This document shows positions 12,762-64,000 of a stretch of 64,000 nt of DNA, piece by piece. The first letter of the stretch is position 1; each line of letters starts with the position of its first letter. The notes beneath the pieces are model-generated. The model was not told the origin of the DNA, made no database searches, and saw nothing but the letters and a program-made list of their open reading frames with translations. Source of the DNA: Patescibacteria group bacterium (lineage in GTDB: Bacteria; Patescibacteriota; Gracilibacteria; UM-FILTER-43-11); contig JAHJBZ010000002.1 in the NCBI GenBank assembly GCA_018813295.1, positions 1,935 through 65,934 on the forward strand, given 5' to 3'. Both the position numbers and the translations under genes were made by a program.

Positions 12762-14939
12762 TTAGGCTGTTCTTTCGGCGGATTCTCTTTCTGCAACCTG
12801 AGCTAACATCTGATCGTAAGTAACACTTGATAATCTTGCCTGGCGTTCATCTTCTACACGCACATTAAATGATTTCGACCCCTTTCTGTCTAAACGTTCG
12901 TACATATCATTGGCCAATCTATCAAGATTATTTAGATATATTAGGTTATTAAACACATCAAAAGGATCAATATTACGCGGACCAAAATCTGCAGCTAATT
13001 TACTCTTTTGTGCAGGGGTTAAGCTTTCTTCAAAAGCTTCTCTGTCTTTAAATGTTTTTGTTGGCACCTCAGCTAAGTTTAAATATTTTGAGAAGGCCGT
13101 TGGTGCAAATATTGATATATTTGTATTTCCAGATATACCCAAAGCAGTGCGAGGTAGTGCCATATTTACTGAAGGTAAATAAAGATTATATCTATTAGTG
13201 TCTTTTTTATTGTTATAAAGACTGCGTAGATTTATTTCTGCATCCGATGGGAACTCATATTCTGTAGCCGCACTAACAATTTCATGCGTGATGTCATTGT
13301 ACGCATCTGTGTAAATTTCCTGTTCTATTCTGGTGTATTCTTCAATTGCTGTTTGTAAATTTTTAAATGCTCTACCTTTTTTTTGGTTCAAATCCCTTAA
13401 AGCTATGTAATCTTCTTCTGCGGGTTCCATGTATGCACCTGTCATATTATCTATTTCCTGTTTTTTTGCTGCCCAGTCCTGATATGCAGTTCTGTATTCC
13501 TGATAAGCTCTTCTTGGCCATGATCCATCTGCGCAATATCGATTAATAGTATCATGCCAACCTCCTGAATCGGGATCATGGTATGCAATATAATGAAGGT
13601 CATCTTCAATCATCTCCCTTCTTTTGTTACCTGCTTTTCTATGTTTAGGTTTTACCAATGAATCAAATAATTCCAACCTAAGAAGATCGCCATGCTGTAT
13701 GTTGGCTGGTAAATTTTGTATGTCCAATCTTCTTTCTCTTGCACGCTCAGTTAATTTAGCAGTTTCGGGTCTGGTTTCAGCTGGTATATCAGGGGTGCCA
13801 GCTTCTTCTACCTCAGCAGCCCTGGTATTTTCTGCATTCCACGCATCGGTGTAATCCTGACTAAAATATTCGGCTCCTTCTGTTGTTAAAAGATTATGAA
13901 CTGTGGCCCAGTTTTCTGCTGAATGTGCAATGCCAGTTGGATCCTCTGAATCTTTCGGCACTGTATCTGCGGCAATAGCCTTTAAAACATCTGCCTTTAG
14001 TGTGTCGTTATAACCTTGTGTAAATGCAAAAATCGCTTCATTGCTGGCATTTTGACTTTGTAGTTGTTGCAGAGTTGCCTGTCCGGTTTCATCGAGCTGA
14101 ACTTCTGGTGCTCTACGTGCAACTGGCACTGCACTAAAATTTCCTTCTAATTGTCTTTCAAGGTGATCAATAGCTTTTTTGTATTCCGCGTCTCTTCGAC
14201 CAGTTCTGAAATCTGCATGTAAGGTGGCTCTGAATCTTTGCCATTCTGGTTTTTTATGTTCGTAAATTGTAGTTAAATACGCACCTAAAACGCTTACAGT
14301 GTATCCGCCCATCATTCCGTCGATGTAAGTAAAGCCATTTGTACGGCGCCCCTCCACTAGCTCAAATTTAATACCATATTGCGGATCAGCGAAATCTTCT
14401 GTTAGTATTTCCTGCAAAGCGCCAACGCATTTTCGCTGGTCTCTTTGGTTTAGACCGGTTTTACCTAATACCTGCTCAGCAAATTCGCGGTTCCATTCGC
14501 TCCAATTGCCGTTGTATTCCTGGTGGGTTTTTACAAATTCATACCATTTATTTGGGTTTTCTGCCAACACTTCTCTGACATCGCTGATATATTTTTGTTT
14601 TTCTGCTTCATTATCAAAAATTTCTCTTGTTACCCTTTTTCGAACGGTTTCCAGCCCTGCCTGTGCATCACGGATTGCCGTTTCTGGTGGCGTTGCTAGT
14701 TCTCCGGCAGGAGGAACAACTTCAGCCAAAGCATCATCATCTGCCCCGGGCCTATCCAATGGATCTAGCGGCGTAGGTATATCTTCTTCAAAATCAAGAT
14801 GACCTGTAAGTCCCTCCTGGCGCCCTCTCTGCACCTCAGATGCACCTGCCGGTACGACTCTGGAGGGAGGAGTTTCTTCCGCATAAATCAACCGTTCCGG
14901 CCCAAAGAAATTTGAATTTTCGAATTGATTATATTTCAT
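12762..14939 (-). CDS. Orphan 725-aa soluble protein (no recognisable domain)
   Basis: Long uninterrupted ORF with no TM helix or signal peptide. It has an acidic/Pro-rich N-terminus and lies upstream of, and co-oriented with, the HAMP-PP2C gene. Confidence 0.6.
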   Translation of the reverse strand: MKYNQFENSNFFGPERLIYAEETPPSRVVPAGASEVQRGRQEGLTGHLDFEEDIPTPLDPLDRPGADDDALAEVVPPAGELATPPETAIRDAQAGLETVRKRVTREIFDNEAEKQKYISDVREVLAENPNKWYEFVKTHQEYNGNWSEWNREFAEQVLGKTGLNQRDQRKCVGALQEILTEDFADPQYGIKFELVEGRRTNGFTYIDGMMGGYTVSVLGAYLTTIYEHKKPEWQRFRATLHADFRTGRRDAEYKKAIDHLERQLEGNFSAVPVARRAPEVQLDETGQATLQQLQSQNASNEAIFAFTQGYNDTLKADVLKAIAADTVPKDSEDPTGIAHSAENWATVHNLLTTEGAEYFSQDYTDAWNAENTRAAEVEEAGTPDIPAETRPETAKLTERARERRLDIQNLPANIQHGDLLRLELFDSLVKPKHRKAGNKRREMIEDDLHYIAYHDPDSGGWHDTINRYCADGSWPRRAYQEYRTAYQDWAAKKQEIDNMTGAYMEPAEEDYIALRDLNQKKGRAFKNLQTAIEEYTRIEQEIYTDAYNDITHEIVSAATEYEFPSDAEINLRSLYNNKKDTNRYNLYLPSVNMALPRTALGISGNTNISIFAPTAFSKYLNLAEVPTKTFKDREAFEESLTPAQKSKLAADFGPRNIDPFDVFNNLIYLNNLDRLANDMYERLDRKGSKSFNVRVEDERQARLSSVTYDQMLAQVAERESAERTA

Positions 14940-26036: not shown

Positions 26037-29000
26037 ATGGCAGGAGGTCCACAACCATCTCAACACAGGGAGCGAGCAGGACAAGCACCAACCGGTGTGG
26101 AAACTTTTGAAGAACGAGGTGGTGATTATAGTTTTCAGGATTTTCAGGAGGCTGCTGAGCATGTTGAAAAAGATCCAAATGTAGAAGCTACTGAAAAAAT
26201 CAGAATGCTGAGAGGGAATATGAATCGTAATGAGCAATGGGAAGAAATTACCGCATTTACGCAAGCTGTTGTAAAAATTGTTGCTGAAGTACAAAGAAAT
26301 GATGGGAATGTTAAAAGAATTCGTAAAGATCCAACCATCTTAAGGCAGGAGGTTACCCAGGCAGGGGTCTCAGGCAATCTGATGCTTCCTGAGCTTGCAG
26401 CGCTTGATGAATTGCCTCGTATTTTTGGTGAAGTTGGTGATACCAGTAATTATATAAGGCGACTTTGGCCTGAAATAGTAGACGAAGGAGTGGAAGCTGG
26501 TACCGGACTGGTGGGCAGAAGTATAGATAGGGCAAAAAAGTTTATCAAAAAAAATCCTGTCGGTTCGATTTGCTTGCTTGCCGCCGGAGCAGCAGGTATA
26601 TACTTAAGTTTTAAGGCAATCACTACATATCTTAGTGTTAAGGATAAGGGTGTCGGGGAAACCTTTAAAGAGGCCAGAGAGAAGGGAAAAGAATCAAAGT
26701 GGTATGAAAATAAAGTTTTATGGGCTCTCTTGGTTGCAGTTTTAGGTGGAATTATTGGCCAAAAAGCACTCAAAAACCTACTAAAAGGGTTAAATTTAGA
26801 AGAACTTCAGGAATTACTTGATAGAGGTGAAGATATCCCCGAAGAAATGCAAAGGCAAATGGAAGAACAGGCTGCCAGGCTTGAAGAGTTGGAGAGAAAG
26901 GCAGAGGGAGTAGTAGGAGTAAGTGGTGCTATAGAAGGAGGCAGGGAAATGGTAACGGAAGGAATTGAAATAGTAAGTGAAGCTTCAAAATTTGAGGGTC
27001 AGTGTGAGGCACTTCTTGCAGTATATTGTTTTAATGAATATCGTTATGATCCACGACGTGACAAAAATAAGATTAAAAAGGTTTTTGAAGACCTAAGAGA
27101 AGAGCGTGTAATAGACATAATAGCATTGTGGGAAGATCATAAAACAGAAGATGAAGAAGGCACTATTCCAAGAAATACTGATTTGTATAATTTTGGTGGA
27201 GATATTGATCCAAAACATATTTATACAGCCTGCTGGATTATTAGCCAGACTTTTGATCAATATAAAAGACATCTTGGTGCTACCAATTATTCAAGTTTAA
27301 CATTGGATCAATTTTTCGGTGAGCATCTAGCTCAGGATCCAGTTTATAAAATTCATTCCTCAGTACAAACTACAATAACTGCCGCTCTTGAAGACGGGGA
27401 TCTTGAGGATATGAGCCTGGAGGGAATCGCAGCTTCAATTGAAGATGACAAAAATGAATTTTTGATGAAATTGGCAAAGGATTTGAATTTAACGGGTTAT
27501 AGTGATTTAAGCAGAGAACAAAAAATAGATTTTGGAAACATTGCTTTAAAGCTATATCGTGATGCAAATTTGGATGAAACTCCAGATAGAGCAATGCGAA
27601 ATATTGATAGAAGCCAGCATTTTGATGAATCGTTTGATCTGGCAAAAAGATTTTATGAAGCAGTTAGGGAAAACACCCTGAACCCCGAAACAGGTATTAT
27701 CTCAAGATGTGTCGATAGGTTTAATTTAGGACCTGATGTTGTTCCTAGATTAAGTAATGCCGATATTATAAAAAATGAATTAAGTGAAGAAATTGAATTT
27801 GGAAAAGCAGTTCAGCTGAACATCGTTGCCCAAAGAATTGATTTTAGTAAAAGCCCACAAGAAGGTAGTGATCCTATGACTGAACTTGCCTTGCTTTATG
27901 TGGTACTAAATAGCATTACGCCATCAGGCAAAAGGCGATATTTAAGTGAGCTTTCAAATTATGTATTGCAAAAACCTGTGAATATTAATTTGCCAAGTCT
28001 CGAGTTAATCAGACCATATTTAAAAACATTATTAGATTTTGGTATTGATGTCGGTGCAAATAAAATCAGGGCAGGAAAAGATTGGATTTCTGCTTATACT
28101 GCAGATCGAACACCTGAAGAGCAAGAGGCATTTTTACGCGAAATCCGAACTTCTAATATAATTGAATTTGGAGCTGAGACAGGAAAAGAAGCAGGGCTCG
28201 GAACAATTAGAATTGGTGCAGATGTTATGGAAACCATTTGGCAAAGCGGCAGGGTGGCCAAAGAGGATCTTCAAAGTGTTGAAACCACAGGTGATTTTCT
28301 TGCTTTGCTTTGGGCGGTAGGTGGCAGTTTAATTATTTCTAAAAATCCAGATGAACAGCATACAGGAGTGATTTATTTATTTGGAAAATATTTTTATGTT
28401 AAACCGCTTGGTATATTAAGAGATACATTAACGGCTTGGGCTGTAGGTGATGAAACAGGGAAAACCTCACCATCGGTATGTGGCGCAAAAGTATATCTTG
28501 CAACCACATCTCCTTTTGTTGTTATTGGTACAGCACATGGCTATTACCGCAATAGAATGATCGGAAGGACCGGTTGGAGGCTTATTGGTGGAGCGCTTGA
28601 GGGGACTGCTAGAGGACTCGCTGCACCTATTACTTTACCTGTAACAGGAACATCATGGATATATCGTGCTGGTAGGGCAGGTAAAGAAACTGTGCAGACT
28701 GGATTTAACTGGACATGGGATGCGGCTAAATACAAAGCTAGACCTGCTAGAAATATAAATATCATGATGCGTGATGCACAATTTGTTAAAAGGTATTTTC
28801 AAATAAGGCCAATAGAATCTACTGGGGTTTATGAAGAAATGCAGAGGGCATGGGCTCAAGGTCCCAGGGCAACTGCACAAAGACTTGCTATGCCATATTG
28901 GAATCAAAGAATGCTAGAAAAATATGCCATAAAATTTAATAGACGGTATAACAGTTATTTTGGGAAATATGTCAGTACGGATATTACCACTCTATCTAGG

Positions 29001-31343
29001 TTGCCAGGAATGCCAATACCGGCAAGTGAATTAAAAAGCGTTTTCCATGCTGCACAGCGTACGGAGCTATTTTTTCAGAGATTAATAAACCATCCAGAAT
29101 ATAAACATGCTACAACTCCTACGAAAATAGCAGAACTTATTGAAGAAGTTGGTACTACAAAGCCAAAACATAAAGGAGAAACAACATTACTTAGCACACA
29201 AGAAAGATCTCACTTGATTAAAAAAGTGACTACTGAAAATAAATTACATGGTATAAGTGCTGAACAAAATGTCAGAAATTTCCGATCTATGATTCATGAT
29301 GCCAGGGGAAATATTTTCCTAGAAGCCGAAGTGGCAGCAAAAGTGCCAAAGGGAGCCACAGCAGTGCTTTCAGCGGAAGGTGCAATTATGAAACCAGTGG
29401 AAATACGCAAAGGTGTTTATAATTATTTGGGTGAAGAGTTCACATTCAGACAAGATCAAATTGATGCTGAAGCAAGGAGACTTGGAGGAGACCAAGGGAA
29501 AGCTATTGAAAAGCTTTGCCATCAGGAATGGAGTAAACCAAGAAAAATCGGGGAAAGTGCTAAAGGCAGAACTTATCGATATCGAGGTGCTGAATTTACA
29601 CTCACTGAAGCCGAATATACCGGTAAAAATGCAACTGAAATTAAGGCAGCTTGCGAAGCTAAGTTTATTGAATCAGTTCAAATAACAGATGCACGAACTA
29701 TAAATGGAAAAACACAATTTAAAGTGGGTGAAACATGGGTTGAGCTTGCTCAGGATCCAAAATCTATTGAGCATGTTAAAACCCAATATCTGGATCAGCT
29801 CAAACAGGCAGGCAAGCCGATTGAATATGTGGGCAGAAATCCTGCACTGCTTGAATATATGCCGGTTATGGAAAGGGTTTTTGGCTCAGCAGTTGCAGCT
29901 TTGATTCTTTACCATTTAGAAACTGCTGAGGATAAAAGGAAGGCTATATTTGAATGTACAGTTGGGCTAGGTACTTTTATGGCAGGTGCTGCAGCTACTG
30001 AAAAAGCTTTAAGTGTATGGAAACCTAAAACAATTAAAGGATTTTTAGGAAAGAAGGGGCTGGTACTTTTGGGTGGACTAGGAACAGCCATTGGTGTTAC
30101 TGAGCCTATTTCGGATATCCTTGACGATCTTTGGCCGCATTTTATTGGTGAACAACAGCTTTACACTGAAATTATCGATATTGTTGAAAAATCAACAGGG
30201 CGTAGCTTTGTAAGAACGGGCTTTTCTTTAGCAGAGAGAAAAATAGTTAGAACGGGTGTTGAAAGAATGGGCTTGAAAAGTTTAAGCAGTCTTATGACTA
30301 GGAAAGTAGAATCAACTGCTCTTAAAAAAATAGCTACATTTACCAGTAAGTCACTTATGAGGAAACTTGCTGTCAGCCTTGGTGTAAAAGGTACTACTAT
30401 TGCTTTACTTATTGCTGATGATGCCACCTGGATTGGTGTACTTGATGATATTGTAGCTGTCGGTATGGCTGTGTGGATGGCAAAAGATATATATGATATT
30501 GCGGTTCTTGCCAGAAAGGCACTGAAAATTAAAGTTGCCTTGGAGGATTATAATGAAATGCCTATTGCAAGTATTGAACCAAGTACAGAAGTGGACAGAA
30601 ATGCAATCGAAGCAGAGTTAGCTGTCCGAGGAAAAACGTTGGAGGAAATGACTGATGAAGAAATGATGGAAATGATTCAATCTATGCCCGATATTCGTTT
30701 AAAAATTACAAGAGAGGGTGCAACCGGGTATGAGGAGTATCGTTTTGTTAGAGGTGAAATTTGGTCTACAACAATTAAGAATGAGGCAGGGGAAATTTAT
30801 GAACTTTCCGATGAAGAGCTTAATCAGGAAATTTCAGTATCACCACCTGAAGAGTTTAGACCTTGGGAAATTGATTACAATTTAGCGGAAGATGATTTGC
30901 TTGCCAATTATCGACTAGCGATCATGTATACAAAAAGCGAGTGCGCATGGACAAAAATGGATCATGAATTTACTGATACTAATAATGTTGTAATTAAACG
31001 ATTAGATGGCAATGCTCAGTTAAATCTAACACGTACGGGTGAGACCTGGGCAATTGAAGGATTTAAGAGCGGACTGGATTTTTTCCAAGCTATAGCCTTG
31101 GCTAATTTGATAAATAAAGTGAATGTGATATTGGAAAATGAGAAACACGTTGGTGCTAATCCTCATCCTTTTGAACTTCAGGGTATACATATTGACTTTG
31201 ATCGAAACTGGAACCCTGTTGATTTAAGAATAATAAGTGGTAAAGGCGAATGGGCCAAGTTTTACGAAAAAATCGGCATTAGTAATCAGGAATTGGTTGA
31301 TGTTCTTAATGCCTGGTATGCTGCTGAGCGCATTATTGCCTAA
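26037..31343 (+). CDS. Giant 1768-aa orphan integral membrane protein
   Basis: Single uninterrupted ORF. Several hydrophobic helices are present (SICLLAAGAAGIYLSF, VLWALLVAVLGGIIG, FLALLWAVGGSLII, VAALILYHL, LVLLGGLGTAIGV, TTIALLIADDATWIGVLDDIVAVGMAVWMA). I recognise no catalytic motif. Confidence 0.75.
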   Translation: MAGGPQPSQHRERAGQAPTGVETFEERGGDYSFQDFQEAAEHVEKDPNVEATEKIRMLRGNMNRNEQWEEITAFTQAVVKIVAEVQRNDGNVKRIRKDPTILRQEVTQAGVSGNLMLPELAALDELPRIFGEVGDTSNYIRRLWPEIVDEGVEAGTGLVGRSIDRAKKFIKKNPVGSICLLAAGAAGIYLSFKAITTYLSVKDKGVGETFKEAREKGKESKWYENKVLWALLVAVLGGIIGQKALKNLLKGLNLEELQELLDRGEDIPEEMQRQMEEQAARLEELERKAEGVVGVSGAIEGGREMVTEGIEIVSEASKFEGQCEALLAVYCFNEYRYDPRRDKNKIKKVFEDLREERVIDIIALWEDHKTEDEEGTIPRNTDLYNFGGDIDPKHIYTACWIISQTFDQYKRHLGATNYSSLTLDQFFGEHLAQDPVYKIHSSVQTTITAALEDGDLEDMSLEGIAASIEDDKNEFLMKLAKDLNLTGYSDLSREQKIDFGNIALKLYRDANLDETPDRAMRNIDRSQHFDESFDLAKRFYEAVRENTLNPETGIISRCVDRFNLGPDVVPRLSNADIIKNELSEEIEFGKAVQLNIVAQRIDFSKSPQEGSDPMTELALLYVVLNSITPSGKRRYLSELSNYVLQKPVNINLPSLELIRPYLKTLLDFGIDVGANKIRAGKDWISAYTADRTPEEQEAFLREIRTSNIIEFGAETGKEAGLGTIRIGADVMETIWQSGRVAKEDLQSVETTGDFLALLWAVGGSLIISKNPDEQHTGVIYLFGKYFYVKPLGILRDTLTAWAVGDETGKTSPSVCGAKVYLATTSPFVVIGTAHGYYRNRMIGRTGWRLIGGALEGTARGLAAPITLPVTGTSWIYRAGRAGKETVQTGFNWTWDAAKYKARPARNINIMMRDAQFVKRYFQIRPIESTGVYEEMQRAWAQGPRATAQRLAMPYWNQRMLEKYAIKFNRRYNSYFGKYVSTDITTLSRLPGMPIPASELKSVFHAAQRTELFFQRLINHPEYKHATTPTKIAELIEEVGTTKPKHKGETTLLSTQERSHLIKKVTTENKLHGISAEQNVRNFRSMIHDARGNIFLEAEVAAKVPKGATAVLSAEGAIMKPVEIRKGVYNYLGEEFTFRQDQIDAEARRLGGDQGKAIEKLCHQEWSKPRKIGESAKGRTYRYRGAEFTLTEAEYTGKNATEIKAACEAKFIESVQITDARTINGKTQFKVGETWVELAQDPKSIEHVKTQYLDQLKQAGKPIEYVGRNPALLEYMPVMERVFGSAVAALILYHLETAEDKRKAIFECTVGLGTFMAGAAATEKALSVWKPKTIKGFLGKKGLVLLGGLGTAIGVTEPISDILDDLWPHFIGEQQLYTEIIDIVEKSTGRSFVRTGFSLAERKIVRTGVERMGLKSLSSLMTRKVESTALKKIATFTSKSLMRKLAVSLGVKGTTIALLIADDATWIGVLDDIVAVGMAVWMAKDIYDIAVLARKALKIKVALEDYNEMPIASIEPSTEVDRNAIEAELAVRGKTLEEMTDEEMMEMIQSMPDIRLKITREGATGYEEYRFVRGEIWSTTIKNEAGEIYELSDEELNQEISVSPPEEFRPWEIDYNLAEDDLLANYRLAIMYTKSECAWTKMDHEFTDTNNVVIKRLDGNAQLNLTRTGETWAIEGFKSGLDFFQAIALANLINKVNVILENEKHVGANPHPFELQGIHIDFDRNWNPVDLRIISGKGEWAKFYEKIGISNQELVDVLNAWYAAERIIA

Positions 31344-54945: not shown

Positions 54946-55569
54946 ATGAAAGAGTTACTATTAATTGCATTAATTCATTTGCTTGCTGTCATGTCTCCCG
55001 GGCCGGATCTTATTATGATCGCTAAAAATAGTGTTGTTTATTCAAGAAAAACTGGTGTTTATACTGCGATTGGTCTTGCCTTGGGCATTCTTACGCATGT
55101 GACTTATACGCTAATTGGAATTGGAATCATTATTTCACAATCGATTATTCTGTATAGCGTAATAAAAATTGCTGGTGCATTTTATTTGATTTATTTGGGG
55201 CTAAAGGCATTGCTGTCAAAATCTTCAATGGTCAGTAATAAGAGTTTAGTGAAGGCAGAAAAAGATATGTCTAAATTTCAGGCGGTAAAAATAGGATATT
55301 TAACAAATATACTGAATCCAAAAGTTACAATTTTCTTTCTTAGTATATTCTCACAAGTAGTTTCACCTGAAACTGGTTTGGGTATGAAAATTTTATATGG
55401 AGCTGAAATGTCTATGGCTACATTCGTCTGGTTTAGTTTTGTAGCTAATGTATTAACAATTCAAGCAATTAAGCAACATTATGACCGTTTTTCCGGGCAT
55501 ATTGAAAAAACCATGGGAGTGATACTCACTGCATTAGGATTAAAAATAATATTTTCAGGCAGAGATTAG
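54946..55569 (+). CDS. LysE/RhtB-family amino-acid exporter
   Basis: 207 aa with six TM helices and an N-terminal SPGPD motif. Confidence 0.8.
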   Translation: MKELLLIALIHLLAVMSPGPDLIMIAKNSVVYSRKTGVYTAIGLALGILTHVTYTLIGIGIIISQSIILYSVIKIAGAFYLIYLGLKALLSKSSMVSNKSLVKAEKDMSKFQAVKIGYLTNILNPKVTIFFLSIFSQVVSPETGLGMKILYGAEMSMATFVWFSFVANVLTIQAIKQHYDRFSGHIEKTMGVILTALGLKIIFSGRD

Positions 55570-55898
55570 TAAGTAAGTATGTCATTTAGCCCCTGAAAAA
55601 TTGATTTTAACTCATCATCTGTAATTGTACCTATTTTTTTGGTAAGTCTATCTTTTGAAACAGTACGAATCTGAAAGGTAATGATTTCGGAGTTATGCTT
55701 AAGCCCATTTAATTTTGATGGTTTCAGGGAGACACATCCAATATAATTTTTTATTTTTGAGGAAATTGGACATACGATTAAAACATCAAAATTTCTTACC
55801 ATTGTTTTGCCTGACACAATAACAACAGGACGCTTGCCTCTCTGTTCTTTGCCTTTTGATGGATTTAAATTAGCCCAATATATATCTTTTTGATTCAT
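55566..55898 (-). CDS. MazF/PemK-family toxin (endoribonuclease)
   Basis: 110 aa with DIYWANLNPSKGKEQRGKRPVVIVS..LIVCPISS. It overlaps the antitoxin gene by 4 nt. Confidence 0.8.
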   Translation of the reverse strand: MNQKDIYWANLNPSKGKEQRGKRPVVIVSGKTMVRNFDVLIVCPISSKIKNYIGCVSLKPSKLNGLKHNSEIITFQIRTVSKDRLTKKIGTITDDELKSIFQGLNDILTY

Positions 55899-56137
55899 GC
55901 TTCAAGTGCATTTAATTGCTCTACATAATCATCCAAACCTTCTTCTGCCATCTCCCGCATTTCTTTATCCAGCTTTGCAAGCTTAAAGGATTTAATTAAT
56001 TCCTGTTCTTTGAGATCGCGCAATGCCTCTTCAACAAGTGCACTTTTACTTGTATTATATTTTTTCGCCATTTCCTCAAGCATTTTTGCTAATTGAGGTA
56101 TAATGGTGACTGAAATTCTTGTTTTAGCTAAGCTCAT
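55895..56137 (-). CDS. Ribbon-helix-helix antitoxin partner of the MazF-like toxin
   Basis: 80 aa with TRISVTIIPQLAKMLEEMAKKYNTSKSALVEEALRDL (RHH). It is translationally coupled to the toxin gene. Confidence 0.7.
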   Translation of the reverse strand: MSLAKTRISVTIIPQLAKMLEEMAKKYNTSKSALVEEALRDLKEQELIKSFKLAKLDKEMREMAEEGLDDYVEQLNALEA

Positions 56138-58093: not shown

Positions 58094-58186
58094 TTGATTT
58101 CTGCCTACGGCGGTGGTCTAATTGGAGGCCTAATTGGTGTAATGCACCCATAAGGTCACCTATTAGAACCTCAATTAGAAATACTC

Positions 58187-58228
58187 TTGACTTTTATTTT
58201 CATGTTCGATATAATTCTAGTATACTAG
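58187..58228 (+). promoter_or_regulatory. Sigma-70 promoter (TTGACT-17-TATAAT) with an overlapping CTAG-TATA-CTAG palindrome (TrpR-type operator candidate)
   Basis: -35 is at 58187-58192 and -10 at 58210-58215, with a 17-nt spacer. The perfect 12-bp palindrome CTAGTATACTAG at 58217-58228 covers the expected transcription start. Confidence 0.65.
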
Positions 58229-58253
58229 TATATTGTTATATTACTTTTTTCTT

Positions 58254-58502
58254 ATGAACCTATATTTAAGAAAGCTGGTGGATAAATTAGTAAAAACTAA
58301 TAACAAAAGAGATATGGTTGACCTGCTTGAAGCTCTGTTTACCCCTCAGGAACTTAGGTCAATCCCACGTAGACTTGAAATAATTCATTTGATAAAAAAA
58401 GGCATGCCACAACACGACATCGCAAAAAAGCTTGGCGTAGGTGTTGCAACTGTGTCACGTGGTGCAAATGAAGTAAAACTTGGACGCTTTAAAAATGTTT
58501 AA
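58254..58502 (+). CDS. TrpR/YerC-family trp repressor-like protein
   Basis: LFTPQELRSIPRRLEIIHLIKKGMPQHDIAKKLGVGVATVSRGANEVK parallels the E. coli TrpR segment LTPDE..R..I...L..G..SQR.I...LG.GIATITRGSN.LK. ATG 58254 is preferred over the TTG at 58233. Confidence 0.75.
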   Translation: MNLYLRKLVDKLVKTNNKRDMVDLLEALFTPQELRSIPRRLEIIHLIKKGMPQHDIAKKLGVGVATVSRGANEVKLGRFKNV

Positions 58503-58551
58503 AATTATAAACAATTGGTGGGAGTTGCAAAAAAGCCGTTATCAACGGTAG
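58495..58551 (+). CDS. trpL: trp leader peptide with tandem Trp codons (MFKIINNWWELQKSRYQR*)
   Basis: The 18-codon ORF was read by hand, with TGG TGG at 58516-58521. Its ATG overlaps the end of the TrpR-like gene. Its 3' end contains the antiterminator strand. Confidence 0.65.
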   Translation: MFKIINNWWELQKSRYQR

Positions 58552-58580
58552 TTTTGTAGTAATCGCTAAAACTATTTGAT

Positions 58581-58603
58581 GACGGCCAACGGGCCGTTTT
58601 TTT
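58581..58603 (+). terminator. Attenuator terminator immediately upstream of the trp fusion gene
   Basis: Stem ACGGCC (58582-87) / GGCCGT (58592-97) with loop AACG and a U-tract to 58603. The alternative pairing of AGCCGTTATC (58534-43) with GATGACGGCC (58578-87) is an antiterminator. Confidence 0.7.
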
Positions 58604-58623
58604 AATATTTAATTTATTTAACA

Positions 58624-61600
58624 ATGTTAACCGAAGAAAATTTCAATCAGCCATATGCACTTATCTCGAAAGGGGATAATATTCATTTTTACAGCGGAAA
58701 ATTCTTTCGTTTCGATAAATTAGACGATCTTGAGAAGTTTTATAACGAAAGCGACTCTCCTCTAATTTTTATAACTCCATTTTCCGTCGCAAAAGAGAAG
58801 GGATTCAAGGTGGTTGGCGACGAAAAAATACTCATATTACAGGCTGAGCTTAATCAAAAAATAACAGTTGAGTATCTTGATCAATTTATTTCAGACAAAT
58901 CGATTGAGTTAGATGGGGAAATATCTCCTTCCAAGTCAAATGAAGATTTTGCAAATGAGGTCAAACGGATCCAAAGTGAGGAAATTGCCGAAGGAAATGC
59001 TTGTCAGGTGGTTTTGTCTCGTAAATTTCAGGGCAGGATCGACGATATGACTCCAGGGGATCCACTTGTACTGTTTAGACGTTTGCTTTTACAAAAGGGG
59101 CAGTATATGACCTTTTTATTTTCGGACGGGCAAGGGCATTTCTTTGTTGGTGCTTCACCTGAGAGGCAATTGGAGATAAGGGGTGGCAATGTAGTAAAGA
59201 ACCCAATTGCAGGCACCATGCCTAAAGGTGAAAGGGGTGGGTTTAAGGAGAGATTGATAGAGTTTTTAAATGATCCAAAAGAGACTAATGAGTTATCACA
59301 AGTGTTAGATGAAGAACTAAAAATGATGGCTCAAATTTGCCCTGAGGGTGGGAAGATATTTGGACCATATTTACGTGAAACCGGAGCTGTTATACACAGC
59401 GAATATCATTTGGTAGGCCGCAGCAGCAAGCCTCCAATTCAGGCGCTAAAGGAATCTTTTCATGCTCCTACTTTGGTAGGCAGCCCACTTGAGAGTGCTT
59501 TTAGAATTATCGCAAAACGAGAACAGGAATCGCGACGTTATTATGGAGGTGAATTTGGGATAATGGAGCCAAATGGTGATATTGATAGCGCAATTATGAT
59601 CCGCACTGCTGAGATTGATAAGGATGGCAGTTTTGTCATTCAGGCTGGTGCTGGTATTGTGCGTGATTCACTTCCTGAGAAAGAGGCAAATGAAACACGC
59701 ATAAAAGCGGCCGGTATGATTAGTGCTTTAATGGGCGATCAGCGCTTTTCTAAATCTTATTTAGACGATATAGATAAAAAAGCTATTGAGCCAATTCTTA
59801 AAAAACGAAATCAGCGTTTTTCTCGTTTTCATTTCGAAGATCAGTTTGATTTTGTGGAAGAAGGCAAATTAAAAGGATTGAACATTACAATTGTAAATAA
59901 TGAGGATAATTTTGCGCATATGTTGGGACATATAGTTCGTCATATGGGATGCATCTACAAGGTTATTGATACTTTTGATTATTCACCTCAAGATGACACT
60001 AGTGATGTGGTGATTCTTGGACCTGGACCAGGAAATATTAATGATGAAGCGGATCCTCGCATGCAAAAATTATTGACAATCACCAGACAGCTATTGGACG
60101 AAAGTAGGCCTGTGCTAGGGATTTGTCTTGGTAACCAGGCACTTGGCAAGAGCTTGGGGATGATTGTAGAAAAGCAAAAGATCTCCACTCAAGGTGTTCA
60201 AATTCCAATTAATTATTTTGGGAAAAAGGAAAAAGTCGGTTTTTATAATTCGTTTATTCCTCGCTACAAAAAAACTGAACAGCAGATTGAAACTAGCTTG
60301 AACGAGGAAGAGCAAGTCGTTGCTATGAAAGGTAAAGGTATGGCTGGTTTGCAATTTCATCCTGAATCCGCGATGAGCCAGAATGGATATGGAATTCTGA
60401 AGGATGCGCTCTTTTTTCTCGCCCCAAAAAAATCCCTTCCCAAAGATCAAATTAAACAATTTGTTAAGCAGAGCGTTTCAGGAGCGATGACGCTTGATGA
60501 ACAAAAAGAGTTTCTGGTTGATTTGAATGAAAAAGGCTATACCGGAACTGATATTGCTAATTTTATAAAAGCTTTATACAAAGAAATGTCGAAGGAGGTT
60601 TGCGCAAAAGATGCAATTGATATTTGCGGTACCGGAGGGTCTAATCTTCCAAGAATTAACACTTCGACCTTGGCTGCTTTTGTTTGTGCTACTTGTGGGA
60701 TCTCAATTGCTAAACATGGAAACCGAGCTGCCAGTGGTAGGTTTGGTAGTTTTGATTTATTGGAAGCTTTGGGGGTTAACATTGAGGCAAATCACAAGCG
60801 ATTAGAACTGCTTTATAAAAATACGAATTTGGCATTTATTTTCGCACAAAAATTCCATCCCGTTATGAAGCATTTTGCCAAAGCTCGAAAAGAGATAGGG
60901 CAGAAAACGATCTTTAATCTTCTCGGACCACTTCTTAATCCTGCAAATCCAGGTAGGCAGATTATTGGTGTATCGAGTGTCGATGATATGGAGCTTATTA
61001 TCGAAGCAGCAAAGGGGCTTGGCAAAAAACATGTGATGGTCGTTTGTGGATCTGACGGGCTTGATGAGGTTACGATTACCGGACCCACTGATGTGATGGA
61101 GTTAAAAAACGGGGAAATTGCCAAATACACCATTAGGCCTGAGGATTTTGGAGTCAAATCTACAGCTTTTGACTCAATTGCAGGGGGCACTCCTGAGATA
61201 AATACGGAATTAGCAAAAGAAATTTTAGCCGGAACTTGTAAATCTAAACATTTGGATTTGATTTTAGTAAACGTTGCACTAATTTTGAAGTTTGACGGAA
61301 AGGTAAAAGATCTAAAATCCGGCATAAAAATGGCAAGAGAAGTTATAGAAAATGGATCTGTTCAGGCTGTTTTTGAGAAGTATAAGGAGATGAGCTGCAG
61401 CCCTAGCTTCTTACAAAAAGTCGTAAATTCAAAAATGGAGGAAGTTGCAAAATTAAAAAAACAATACCCTCTTGAGCAAATAAAAAAAGACCTCAAACCA
61501 TCTGATCGGGATTTTAAGTCTGCCCTCAGAGGAAAAGATAAATTAAGCCTGATTGCCGAAATTAAACTATCTTCCCCTAGCTTGCCGGACTTATATAAAG

Positions 61601-62775
61601 GCGATCTGAGTGTTGAGGAAATAGCCGTCTGTTATGAAAAAAATGGAGCTTCGGCTATTTCTGTACTCAGTGATAAGGAATTCTTTAAAGGCTCATATGA
61701 CAATTTGAATAAGGCGAGTAAGGCGACTTTAAAGACTCCGATCCTTATGAAGGATTTTGTAATTGATCCGTATCAGATTTATTTGGGGCGTTATTTTGGG
61801 GCTGATGCTGTGTTGCTTATCGCTGCGCTTTTAGACTTAGATACACTGAATTATTTGATAAAACTCGCGCACAGTTTGAATATGGATGCCCTTGTTGAAA
61901 TTCATGATGAAGATGAATTAAAAACCGTGCTTGATAGTTCTGCAGATATTATTGGTATTAACAATCGGGATCTTGAAACGCTGGAAGTAAGCACCAAAAT
62001 AACCTTGAGACTTTCTTCATCAATTCCAACTGACAAAGTGATTGTGGCGGAAAGCGGGTATGACGAAAGCAATGTAAGTCTGATTTCAGGAAAAACTGAT
62101 GCTGTTTTAATTGGCACATCTATTTTAAAAAGGACTGACATATCATCAGCAGTAGACCGTCTGGTTAATCCCGCTAAGGCTATTAAAATTTGTGGGGTAA
62201 CGGACTGTGAAACCGCTAAACTCTGTGATGAAAATGGAGTAACAATGATTGGTTTAAATTTTGTACCAAGCAGTAAAAGATATGTTAACTTTGACGAAGC
62301 CAGAAAAATCAGACCCTATATTAACCGAGCTGCTGTAGTTGGAATTTTCCAGGATCGCCCTGCTGAAGAAGTAAATCGGATCGCAGATGAATTGGACTTG
62401 GATTATGTTCAGCTTGCTGGAAGTGAATTACCTGCATATTGCAGCCAAATAAAAAAACCTGTGATTAAGACTATTAGGATTGATGATATGCTGCCTGATG
62501 ATATGCTTGATTCATTTAATAAATGCGTTGAAATGTTTGTATTGGACGGCCAAAAACCAGGTTCCGGCAAACCTTATGATTACAAAACTATAGATGGTAA
62601 TAAGTTTAAAAAACCTTTTTTAGTTGCTGGCGGAATAGCTTCAAAAAATGCCTCAGACGCTTTAAGGAGCACATCTGCTATTGGAATTGATGTGGCTAGT
62701 GGAGTTGAATCTAAGGGGAAAAAGGACCCTAAATTAATTAAACAACTTATTCAGACTTTAACCTTAAAATTATGA
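58624..62775 (+). CDS. trpEGDCF: Pentafunctional tryptophan-biosynthesis fusion protein TrpE-TrpG-TrpD-TrpC-TrpF
   Basis: 1383 aa in five domains.
- aa 1-370: chorismate-utilising domain (PIAGTMPKG, GSPLESAFRII, RRYYGGEFG, AGAGIVRDSLPEKEANET).
- aa ~419-598: GATase (GICLGNQAL, QFHPES).
- aa ~605-922: TrpD (ICGTGGSN..NTST, KHGNRAASGRFGSFDLLEALG).
- aa ~928-1180: TrpC (IAEIKLSSPS, LMKDFVIDPYQI, GINNRDLETL).
- aa ~1186-1383: TrpF (IKICGVT, IGLNFVPSSKRYV). Confidence 0.9.
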   Translation: MLTEENFNQPYALISKGDNIHFYSGKFFRFDKLDDLEKFYNESDSPLIFITPFSVAKEKGFKVVGDEKILILQAELNQKITVEYLDQFISDKSIELDGEISPSKSNEDFANEVKRIQSEEIAEGNACQVVLSRKFQGRIDDMTPGDPLVLFRRLLLQKGQYMTFLFSDGQGHFFVGASPERQLEIRGGNVVKNPIAGTMPKGERGGFKERLIEFLNDPKETNELSQVLDEELKMMAQICPEGGKIFGPYLRETGAVIHSEYHLVGRSSKPPIQALKESFHAPTLVGSPLESAFRIIAKREQESRRYYGGEFGIMEPNGDIDSAIMIRTAEIDKDGSFVIQAGAGIVRDSLPEKEANETRIKAAGMISALMGDQRFSKSYLDDIDKKAIEPILKKRNQRFSRFHFEDQFDFVEEGKLKGLNITIVNNEDNFAHMLGHIVRHMGCIYKVIDTFDYSPQDDTSDVVILGPGPGNINDEADPRMQKLLTITRQLLDESRPVLGICLGNQALGKSLGMIVEKQKISTQGVQIPINYFGKKEKVGFYNSFIPRYKKTEQQIETSLNEEEQVVAMKGKGMAGLQFHPESAMSQNGYGILKDALFFLAPKKSLPKDQIKQFVKQSVSGAMTLDEQKEFLVDLNEKGYTGTDIANFIKALYKEMSKEVCAKDAIDICGTGGSNLPRINTSTLAAFVCATCGISIAKHGNRAASGRFGSFDLLEALGVNIEANHKRLELLYKNTNLAFIFAQKFHPVMKHFAKARKEIGQKTIFNLLGPLLNPANPGRQIIGVSSVDDMELIIEAAKGLGKKHVMVVCGSDGLDEVTITGPTDVMELKNGEIAKYTIRPEDFGVKSTAFDSIAGGTPEINTELAKEILAGTCKSKHLDLILVNVALILKFDGKVKDLKSGIKMAREVIENGSVQAVFEKYKEMSCSPSFLQKVVNSKMEEVAKLKKQYPLEQIKKDLKPSDRDFKSALRGKDKLSLIAEIKLSSPSLPDLYKGDLSVEEIAVCYEKNGASAISVLSDKEFFKGSYDNLNKASKATLKTPILMKDFVIDPYQIYLGRYFGADAVLLIAALLDLDTLNYLIKLAHSLNMDALVEIHDEDELKTVLDSSADIIGINNRDLETLEVSTKITLRLSSSIPTDKVIVAESGYDESNVSLISGKTDAVLIGTSILKRTDISSAVDRLVNPAKAIKICGVTDCETAKLCDENGVTMIGLNFVPSSKRYVNFDEARKIRPYINRAAVVGIFQDRPAEEVNRIADELDLDYVQLAGSELPAYCSQIKKPVIKTIRIDDMLPDDMLDSFNKCVEMFVLDGQKPGSGKPYDYKTIDGNKFKKPFLVAGGIASKNASDALRSTSAIGIDVASGVESKGKKDPKLIKQLIQTLTLKL

Positions 62776-64000
62776 ACTACAAGAAAGCAATTTTTAACAA
62801 AGATGGTCATTTTGGAACTTATGGCGGCAGGTATGTGCCGGAACTTCTCGTGCCAATTATGGATGATTTGGCAGACACTTTTTTCAAAGCCATTAAAGAC
62901 AAGGAATTTTTGGAGGAGCTGAATAATCTTTACAAAAATTATATCGGCAGGCCTTCGCCGCTTGTTCATCTAAAAAACCTATCAGATAAGTTAGGTGGCG
63001 CCCAGATTTATTTAAAAAATGAGGGGCTTAATCATACCGGTGCCCATAAAATTAATCACTGCCTTGGGCAAGGATTACTAGCAAAAAGAATGGGCAAAAA
63101 ACGTATTATTGCAGAAACCGGTGCAGGCCAGCATGGCCTGGCTACCGCTACTATATGCGCTAAATTTGGACTGGGGTGTACTGTTTATATGGGTGCTAAG
63201 GATTATGACCGCCAAAGACCGAATGTATTTTGGATGGAACAGTTGGGTGCACAGGTTATTCCAGTTTACGAAGGTGGACAGATTTTGAGAGATGCGATTA
63301 ATGCAGCCTTGCGTGACCTCATTTCTAATCCGATAGATAGTCATTATTTACTAGGAACAGTTTGTGGACCGCATCCTTATCCTGTCATGAATACATATTT
63401 TCAAAGAGTGATAGGAGGGGAAGTTCGTAAACAATTAAAAATTAAACCGGACTACCTTGTTGCTTGTGTGGGCGGAGGTAGTAATGCGATAGGACTTTTT
63501 TATGAATTTCTGGATGACAAGAACATTACAATGATCGGAGTTGAAGCTGGCGGGAAAGGAATAAAAAGCAAGAAGCACGCCGCTCGTTTTCAAGGTGGCA
63601 GTAAAGGTGTTGCGGAAGGTTTCAAATCCTTCTTTTTGCAAGACGATGATGGTCAGCTAGCTGAAACCCACAGTATTTCCGCCGGACTTGATTATTCTGG
63701 TGTCGGACCACAAATGGCTTATTTAAAGGAAAAAGGGCGTATTAAATTTACTTATTCGACGGATAAAGATGTTCTTAAGGCCTATAAAACACTCGCCAAA
63801 ACGGAAGGTATTTTAGCCGCTCTGGAATCCTGCCATGCAGTGGCGGAAGTTATTAAACTAGCACCGACCTTAAAACCCAAGCAGACAATTGTGGTGAATG
63901 GTTCCGGGAGAGGTGATAAGGATTTATTTATTGTCACGAAGGAGCTGAAGGATGAGGGATTTAGGGAATTTCTGAGGGAGCAGGGTTGTACCTTGGTTCC
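62772..64000 (+). CDS. trpB: Tryptophan synthase beta chain (3' end beyond window)
   Basis: Read by hand: MNYKKAIFNKDGHFGTYGGRYVPELL.., LNHTGAHKINH (PLP lysine), ETGAGQHG, GGGSNAIG, SISAGLDYSGVGP. The ATG overlaps the fusion-gene stop in ATGA. The frame is still open at 64000, past the usual TrpB C-terminus. Confidence 0.93.
   Translation, partial: MNYKKAIFNKDGHFGTYGGRYVPELLVPIMDDLADTFFKAIKDKEFLEELNNLYKNYIGRPSPLVHLKNLSDKLGGAQIYLKNEGLNHTGAHKINHCLGQGLLAKRMGKKRIIAETGAGQHGLATATICAKFGLGCTVYMGAKDYDRQRPNVFWMEQLGAQVIPVYEGGQILRDAINAALRDLISNPIDSHYLLGTVCGPHPYPVMNTYFQRVIGGEVRKQLKIKPDYLVACVGGGSNAIGLFYEFLDDKNITMIGVEAGGKGIKSKKHAARFQGGSKGVAEGFKSFFLQDDDGQLAETHSISAGLDYSGVGPQMAYLKEKGRIKFTYSTDKDVLKAYKTLAKTEGILAALESCHAVAEVIKLAPTLKPKQTIVVNGSGRGDKDLFIVTKELKDEGFREFLREQGCTLV

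Follow-up and report, generated by a model that had tools for sequence, protein, structure and literature searches.

We analysed a 64 kb stretch of DNA from a Patescibacteria group bacterium (hereafter the window) and propose that its positions 58187-58623 form the control region of one tryptophan (trp) operon, equipped with two layers of control, a TrpR-like repressor and a leader-peptide attenuator. We put the probability of this reading at about 0.85. The gene order in the window is trpR, a leader open reading frame (ORF), a trpEGDCF fusion and trpB (Table 1). The trpR gene and the trp enzyme genes directly 3' of it share one strand and have no promoter between them; the + strand at 58503-58623 was free of promoter-like sites. 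Reading the sequence and listing its ORFs recovered, each at its coordinates, all elements that a preliminary description of this DNA had named: a promoter TTGACT-17-TATAAT, an operator candidate of CTAG half-sites with the E. coli spacing, a TrpR-family repressor gene, an 18-codon leader that overlaps the repressor stop and carries TGG TGG at 58516-21, an antiterminator, and a terminator of ACGGCC/GGCCGT plus U7.

For comparison, 185,579 species genomes were scanned with an alignment of 17 TrpR-like homologs, which yielded 181 hits, and 80 loci were fetched. Exact-protein look-ups and a metagenome scan added further loci, so that about 90 related loci, designated here by L numbers, were compared overall. 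The metagenome scan for close relatives gave seven loci, none of them alignable at the nucleotide level. The nucleotide alignment comprised the window, L085-87, whose TrpR is 94% identical, and L095, whose fusion protein is 65% identical.

Promoter and candidate operator of the trp operon

Both close relatives, L085 and L095, retain the promoter, with an identical -35 hexamer TTGACT, and TTGACA is conserved in most of 78 relatives. By itself the promoter match is not beyond chance, as three matches of at least 11/12 occur in the window against 3.5 in shuffles. Since the -10 hexamer abuts the operator, transcription would be expected to start inside the palindrome, at about 58222.

The core palindrome CTAGTATACTAG is the sole CTAG-N4-CTAG of the 64 kb, an occurrence that is not significant alone (at least one in 33 of 100 shuffles). 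Sites with up to three mismatches to the 16-mer family consensus TACTAGTATACTAGTA number two in the window against 0.10 expected, and no shuffle had two. In L085 and L095 the strong and the weak operator copy are exchanged with the 8-bp phase unchanged. The window lineage (window, L085 and L095) is marked by two overlapping operator sites 8 bp apart, the stronger one in either position, with the -10 hexamer TATAAT one helical turn upstream and the operator spanning the start site. Three CTAGs at 8-bp steps are found in L008 and L098.

The preliminary proposal of an operator was supported by a survey of the 200 nucleotides (nt) upstream of trpR. Of 78 loci, 19 have TACTAGTATACTAGTA there without a mismatch, 20 with one and 21 with two, adding up to 60/78, and 632 kb of background DNA of those loci contained no site with two mismatches or fewer and one with three. 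Most relatives carry the operator within TTGACA-N16-TATACT, with the -10 hexamer as the operator centre. The E. coli trp operon has the same layout, with a promoter TTGACA-N17-TTAACT and the operator ACTAGTTAACTAGT upstream of trpL, which we found in 5422/5426 E. coli genomes. In most relatives (L006, L007, L018, L022 and others) this site lies about 200 nt upstream of the segment encoding the TrpR helix-turn-helix and the trpR ATG follows the operator by 2-10 nt, which suggests that their trpR mRNAs are leaderless or nearly so.

The first gene encodes a TrpR-like protein

The 82-amino-acid (aa) product of trpR is a member of the family PF01371 (67.6 bits, cut-off 27, E=1e-18), as the preliminary description had assumed, and it is TrpR-like in sequence, key residues and predicted fold. 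Among solved structures, its best matches are those of E. coli TrpR, with E=3e-7 for the protein and E=2e-12 for a profile of the 17 homologs. An AlphaFold2 monomer model has five helices at a predicted local distance difference test (pLDDT) score of 93.7. A Foldseek search of the PDB with this model returned E. coli TrpR for all of the top 14 matches (template modelling (TM) score 0.71-0.80, root mean square deviation 1.7-2.5 Å, 29-34% identity), followed by YerC-type proteins. Alignment to 1jhg and 1tro places E. coli residues T44, R54, T81, R84 and G85 at T30, R40, T66, R69 and G70, which are invariant across the 17 homologs. We take these residues of E. coli TrpR to be those that contact the corepressor and DNA. 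By analogy, the protein would bind DNA in an L-tryptophan-dependent manner.

Attenuation could also be real with a first gene of the YerC/YecD type, whose product would have another ligand or role, the palindrome serving something else. Such a protein would account for a score of 51.7 bits with the NCBIfam TrpR equivalog TIGR01321, which lies under the cut-off of 67.25. The match to the YerC/YecD model TIGR02531 is weak as well (33.1 bits, cut-off 42.2), and with the family profile the YerC-type structures (E=2e-11) come near E. coli TrpR. The YerC/YecD proteins of Firmicutes (PDB 3kor, 3frw, 3g1c) share the Pfam family and the small helical fold, but are 24-26% identical to the window protein, compared with 29-34% for E. 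coli TrpR, and we know of no established link between them and trp operators. An operator sequence and spacing close to those of E. coli, its overlap with the promoter in 60/78 loci, the invariant corepressor-contact residues, the top fold matches and the linkage of the gene to trp genes or trpS all argue for a TrpR-like repressor instead, and we consider a YerC/YecD-type protein improbable.

A leader ORF with tandem tryptophan codons overlaps trpR

The leader ATG at 58495 lies within AAT GTT TAA (read as A-ATG-TT-TAA), over the last two sense codons of trpR, whose stop codon is at 58500-02. The leaders of the close relatives read MFKIINNWWGL in L085 and MFNSIKNWWALSNSCYQQ in L095. Short ORFs containing one to three Trp codons are found where trpR ends in nearly every relative locus, for example MFDPINKKLFLSWWQLG, MKNKINSNNWWTSNLW and MKNHSKKSIWQTWQNL. 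To guard against selection bias, we picked leaders by position only, as the first ATG ORF of 8-45 codons after trpR. Trp makes up 6.1% of the codons of these ORFs, compared with 0.74% in long ORFs at these loci and 1.1% in controls from the opposite strand, and 49/64 of them contain at least one Trp codon. Trp-rich leaders of the kind proposed in the preliminary description thus recur in related genomes.

In 25 of 54 leader-bearing loci, the trpR stop and the leader ATG overlap (as A-ATG-TNT-AA or ATGA), which explains the recurring MF, MY and MC starts of the leaders and agrees with the conserved TrpR C-terminus ...KNV/I. In L040, L047, L051, L059, L075, L091 and L098, TrpR itself carries the Trp-Trp motif as a C-terminal tail, and the protein ends, for example, in ...QKTSWWQNLSQMRG or ...KSSWWQKLIWRA before the stop codon. 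This tail looks like a fusion of repressor and leader. In most of the variants folded (all but L091 and L098), a terminator follows and the same three fold states as in the window (see below) are predicted, with L040 as an exception.

Leader translation is predicted to switch between two RNA folds

Compared with dinucleotide shuffles, the leader region has a folding z-score of -3.7. The free RNA is predicted to form a protector hairpin and the terminator (-32.7 kcal/mol); an outer extension of the protector, 58515-21:58563-69, pairs the Trp codons. With the ribosomal A site on either Trp codon, the RNA adopts an antiterminator fold (-23.1 kcal/mol) and the terminator is lost, and with the A site on the stop codon only the terminator forms. 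These three states persist when the footprint edge is placed anywhere from +8 to +15 nt relative to the A site; with an edge of +16 to +18, 4/7 of the terminator pairs survive a stall on the second Trp codon. When the front edge of the ribosome was slid along the RNA, the terminator was abolished only at 58518-58535, corresponding to an A site at about codons 4-9, which include both Trp codons.

The ribosome-masked folds agree with the preliminary idea that a ribosome stalled at the Trp-Trp codons would free the antiterminator strand and one at the stop codon would cover it. The antiterminator itself, given there as 58534-43:58578-87, pairs as described but had been drawn too small, since the predicted structure comprises 58535-45:58576-86 plus two more helices. 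The earlier scheme had also omitted the protector: the antiterminator would compete with this upstream hairpin in the classical 1:2 / 2:3 / 3:4 order. The U7 tract of the terminator ends 20 nt short of the trp ATG at 58624.

Combined with the operator, these folds suggest the following mechanism. In the first layer, by homology, a tryptophan-bound dimer of the TrpR-like protein would bind TTCTAGTATACTAGTA, which directly follows the -10 hexamer and spans the start site, and block initiation of the whole operon; as this block would include trpR, the repressor would be autoregulated. In the second layer, derived in silico, ribosomes ending trpR would begin the leader at the ATG in the trpR stop region, so that, judging from the sequence, leader translation would be coupled to that of trpR. 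When charged tryptophan transfer RNA (tRNA-Trp) is scarce, a stall on TGG TGG would cover the 5' half of the protector and leave 58535-45 free; this strand would pair with 58576-86, the terminator would be blocked and RNA polymerase would enter the trp genes. With ample tRNA-Trp the ribosome would reach the TAG at 58549 and cover 58535-45, upon which the hairpin 58581-98 with its U7 would form and transcription would end 20 nt short of the trp genes. In untranslated RNA, the protector hairpin and the terminator would form. Premature termination before the trp genes is a prediction of the folding model.

Table 1 Features of the trp operon in the window and Trp-Trp tails of TrpR in related loci
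Feature	Position	Strand	Description
-35 hexamer	58187..58192	+	TTGACT; 11/12 match together with -10, 17-nt spacer
-10 hexamer	58210..58215	+	TATAAT; abuts operator
TrpR operator, 16-mer (candidate)	58215..58230	.	TTCTAGTATACTAGTA; 1 mismatch to family consensus TACTAGTATACTAGTA
Core palindrome	58217-58228		CTAGTATACTAG; perfect, directly after -10 hexamer
Second, weak operator-like site	58223..58238	.	3 mismatches; overlaps first site, offset 8 bp
trpR	58254..58502	+	82-aa TrpR-family repressor; PF01371; no Trp residues
Leader ORF (trpL-like)	58495..58551	+	MFKIINNWWELQKSRYQR; 18 codons; TAG stop 58549-51
Tandem regulatory Trp codons (putative)	58516..58521	+	TGG TGG, inside leader ORF
Protector (1:2) hairpin, predicted	58525..58559	+	58525-32:58552-59 and 58535-40:58544-49; minimum-energy fold of free RNA
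Antiterminator (2:3), predicted	58535..58586	+	58535-45:58576-86, 58548-54:58569-75, 58557-60:58565-68; constrained folds
Intrinsic terminator (3:4), predicted	58581..58603	+	GACGGCC-AACG-GGCCGUU (58581-98), then U7 (58597-58603)
TrpE-TrpG-TrpD-TrpC-TrpF fusion	58624..62775	+	One 1383-aa ORF; Pfam and NCBIfam domains in this order
trpB	62772..64000, continues past window end	+	Follows fusion
Trp-Trp tails fused to TrpR (relatives)	L040:2500-2562, L047:5202-5270, L051:5202-5270, L059:5193-5261, L075:5196-5264, L091, L098:2639-2953		

Conservation of the predicted switch in relatives

The two close relatives show compensatory changes in the helices, as a conserved switch of the kind first described would entail. 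In the three sequences window, L085 and L095, all 7/7 terminator pairs are kept, three of them through changes on both sides, and the inner protector helix has 97.6% of cells paired with two compensatory pairs, giving five compensatory changes in total for these two helices. The 11-bp antiterminator core keeps 11/11 pairs with six one-sided, wobble-compatible changes, several of which fall in the strand shared with the terminator. Slid controls were 32-66% paired. The L085 leader ends two codons past Trp-Trp, and the three fold states are still kept.

In the wider set, a GC-rich hairpin with a T-run lies downstream of trpR in 63/80 genome loci. Under stricter criteria, the leader stop precedes the terminator stem by 19-37 nt in 43 of the 54 leader-bearing loci. 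The leader RNAs of relatives are unrelated in sequence, many of them with CCUCC/GGAGG stems, so that the logic is conserved and not the sequence.

We computed switch statistics for the 46 loci having both leader and terminator. The median probability of the terminator helix was 0.51 in the free RNA, 0.10 with a ribosome stalled at the first Trp codon and 0.66 with one at the stop codon; with a shuffled spacer it was 0.60. A ribosome at the stop codon yielded antitermination in 0/46 loci, and an interval of ribosome positions with predicted antitermination was present in 35/46. The downstream edge of this interval, the switch boundary, lies 0-3 codons past a Trp codon in 30/35 cases against 9.5 expected (p=8e-13). 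This test replaced a simple comparison of permissive A sites between Trp and non-Trp codons, which was weak (52% vs 39%, p=0.03) since codons that precede Trp are permissive as well.

These numbers bear on whether the repressor could be the only control, in which case hairpin and U7 would amount to a leaky trpR terminator and the small ORF to untranslated noise. A leader without a Shine-Dalgarno sequence, whose translation is a prediction, and the relatives in which the switch is not predicted would fit such an arrangement. It is hard to reconcile with the 8-fold enrichment of Trp codons in ORFs picked by position, with a switch boundary that follows the Trp codons, with a terminator that always returns when the ribosome is at the stop, and with a Trp-Trp pair that is kept even when the leader is fused to TrpR. 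We therefore regard repressor-only control as very unlikely.

A leader acting through translation or Rho-type polarity, for example by a hairpin that gates the trp start codon, seems more doubtful still. The terminator does end just 20 nt from the ATG at 58624, and strong intrinsic terminators are few in the window. The start codon and its surroundings nevertheless lie outside the hairpin, and in most loci a GC-rich stem is followed by 6-8 T at a variable distance from the next start codon, as would suit intrinsic termination. Control by a TRAP-like protein was dropped on inspection by eye, as no (G/U)AG repeat array was seen in the leader.

Several observations weigh against two-layer control in the form proposed here. 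The switch in the window is a result of thermodynamic folding with an assumed ribosome footprint, and the covariation statistics, drawn from three sequences, have limited weight. The outer helix 58515-21:58563-69 is paired in 66.7% only and not conserved; although it belongs to the minimum-energy fold of the window, we dropped this helix on the Trp codons as a part of the mechanism. The minimum-energy fold of the free L085 RNA is the antiterminator and not the terminator, and 11/46 relatives lack a predicted antitermination interval. The window as a whole has five strong hairpin-plus-T-run terminators, on both strands. The repressor protein, as described above, falls short of the TrpR equivalog cut-off. 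Finally, no Shine-Dalgarno sequence precedes the leader ATG, and leader translation would therefore have to rely on coupling or another start mechanism. This absence means little here, because just 2/36 long ORFs of the window carry GGAG, GAGG, AGGA or AAGG in the 20 nt that precede their first ATG.

Operon layout and genomic setting

The 1383-aa fusion (58624-62775) contains zero Trp codons, where about 10 would be expected at 0.74%. The fusion ORF was recovered in assemblies of independent read sets too, and proteins of the window are also found in GCA_018824965.1, labelled Patescibacteria group bacterium by NCBI. At 62772-62775 an ATGA overlap places the trpB ATG over the TGA of the fusion, from which the enzyme genes, too, look translationally coupled. 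In the relative L095, trpA comes next after trpB, and trpA probably sits beyond the end of the window as part of the operon.

Fusions of about 1380 aa similar to that of the window form about 20 protein clusters, some of them labelled Candidatus Marinimicrobia (52% identity). Most relatives from the Candidate Phyla Radiation (CPR) have separate trp genes and no fusion. The Marinimicrobia-labelled fusion operons (L096:2698-3003 and L097) lack both an adjacent trpR and a leader with Trp codons; they carry a single ACTAGT beside a promoter-like TTGACA-N17-TACAAT.

In 35/80 genome loci, trpR is followed in the same orientation by trp genes, either trpEGDCFB or just trpB. The preliminary description had called the joining of repressor, leader and enzymes in one transcript unusual. 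It is less unusual than that: the trp operons of Chlamydiae also begin with trpR, and CPR genomes commonly contain the module.

Most of the loci are labelled as CPR, namely Roizman-, Levy-, Peregrini-, Gracili- and Parcubacteria, and many others as 'uncultured Gammaproteobacteria'. In the pairs L022/L035, L084/L082, L079/L078 and L048/L025, a contig titled Gammaproteobacteria is 80-89% identical at the nucleotide level, over 1.0-4.5 kb, to a contig of Candidatus Roizmanbacteria or a Patescibacteria group bacterium; for several Gammaproteobacteria-labelled contigs, identity at this level to Roizmanbacteria contigs extends beyond 4 kb. Judging from this identity, the Gammaproteobacteria label on those contigs is probably wrong, and we do not claim the system for the class Gammaproteobacteria.

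Elsewhere in the window, the ORFs 26037-31343 (+, 1768 aa) and 12762-14939 (-, 724-725 aa) had no Pfam match at E<=1e-5. Two small overlapping ORFs lie at 55566-55898 (-) and 55895-56137 (-); by eye, the former looks like a PemK/MazF-type toxin and the latter like its antitoxin.

Discussion

The proposed control region shares most of its parts with the trp operon of E. coli. In both, CTAG half-sites 8 bp apart lie over the promoter (ACTAGTTAACTAGT there, CTAGTATACTAGT here), the repressor has the TrpR fold (predicted here) and its ligand-contact residues, a short leader carries tandem Trp codons, and mutually exclusive protector, antiterminator and terminator helices (here predicted) are followed by a U tract. 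The two differ in arrangement. In E. coli, trpR is unlinked and trpL opens the transcript with its own ribosome-binding site, whereas here trpR is the first gene of the operon and the leader follows it without a Shine-Dalgarno sequence; moreover, five enzyme domains are united here in one Trp-free protein. Rfam at the gathering score detected no Trp leader, T-box or other riboswitch in the window, and at E<=1 over 58100-58700 only a chance U5 match on the minus strand. Membership in a known Rfam family was therefore rejected, as no Trp leader model matched: the element would work like trpL but has no homology to the enterobacterial leaders.

Chlamydiae provide the closest parallel in gene order. 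Their trp operons have a promoter-proximal and hence autoregulated trpR, and for C. trachomatis and C. felis a leader peptide has been proposed between trpR and the first enzyme gene (PMC3937554, PMC7755916). These proposed leaders are atypical, 40-59 aa long and unvalidated, and in Simkania trpR is followed by a full operon without a leader (PMC3937554, PMC7755916). The C. trachomatis leader has no tandem Trp codons and scores as a poor attenuator (PMC7755916). The operon described here shares the first position of trpR but differs in its leader of 18 codons with a Trp-Trp pair and an overlap with the trpR stop, which forms part of a predicted compact attenuator of classical design conserved across many genomes.

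A second chlamydial case is the WWW motif of C. trachomatis YtgCR, in which Rho-independent termination is tied to the supply of tryptophan by Trp codons in the frame of a regulator (PMC7755916). The relatives that carry Trp-Trp as the C-terminal tail of TrpR resemble this case. YtgCR, however, is the precursor of an iron repressor, acts in trans and favours termination upon stalling, whereas in the fused-tail relatives stalling is predicted to block termination in cis, and the window has a separate, overlapping leader ORF.

We found no paper on attenuation or TrpR in Patescibacteria/CPR. The two-layer logic is textbook knowledge, and operons beginning with trpR are known from Chlamydiae. New are the predicted compact classical attenuator behind a presumably autoregulated trpR, the leader that overlaps or is fused to the repressor ORF, and the spread of this arrangement in genomes of candidate phyla.

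More tentatively, and with slightly less than even confidence, we suggest that translation of trpR is itself the sensing step and that the module is a portable CPR cassette which also gates non-biosynthetic targets. A ribosome finishing trpR would re-initiate at the overlapping ATG and read the Trp codons; in at least seven relatives of several lineages it would simply continue into the Trp-Trp tail of TrpR. If true, no amino-acid attenuator would have been described for the Candidate Phyla Radiation before this cassette of trpR, leader and terminator, whose gated targets would be trpS, a divergent gene of the TrpD type and functionally uncharacterised proteins devoid of Trp.

Among the loci without a trp operon downstream of the cassette, L012 has trpS about 430 nt away (L012:3445-4452) and L052 a gene for a divergent TrpD-like protein (L052:3877-5295). 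Proteins of 540-560 aa with zero Trp are encoded downstream of the cassette at L014:5348-7015, L024:3684-5303, L062:457-2136 and L069:5316-6998. The L014 protein had no Pfam, NCBIfam or PDB-sequence match, and the L024 protein no Pfam match. These genes downstream of the cassette are candidates for new tryptophan-related genes.

Full two-layer tryptophan control in the style of E. coli, with a near-identical operator, would be present in bacteria labelled as CPR, a group whose regulation is almost unstudied and in which amino-acid synthesis is often presumed absent. The compact, conserved attenuator proposed here behind trpR would be a clean case of an arrangement that has long been a matter of debate in Chlamydia, whose proposed leader is doubtful. 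The overlap of leader and trpR, and the Trp-Trp pair on TrpR itself, suggest that one ribosome may serve both for synthesis of the repressor and for sensing of charged tRNA-Trp. The cassette, finally, flags uncharacterised genes as tryptophan-related.

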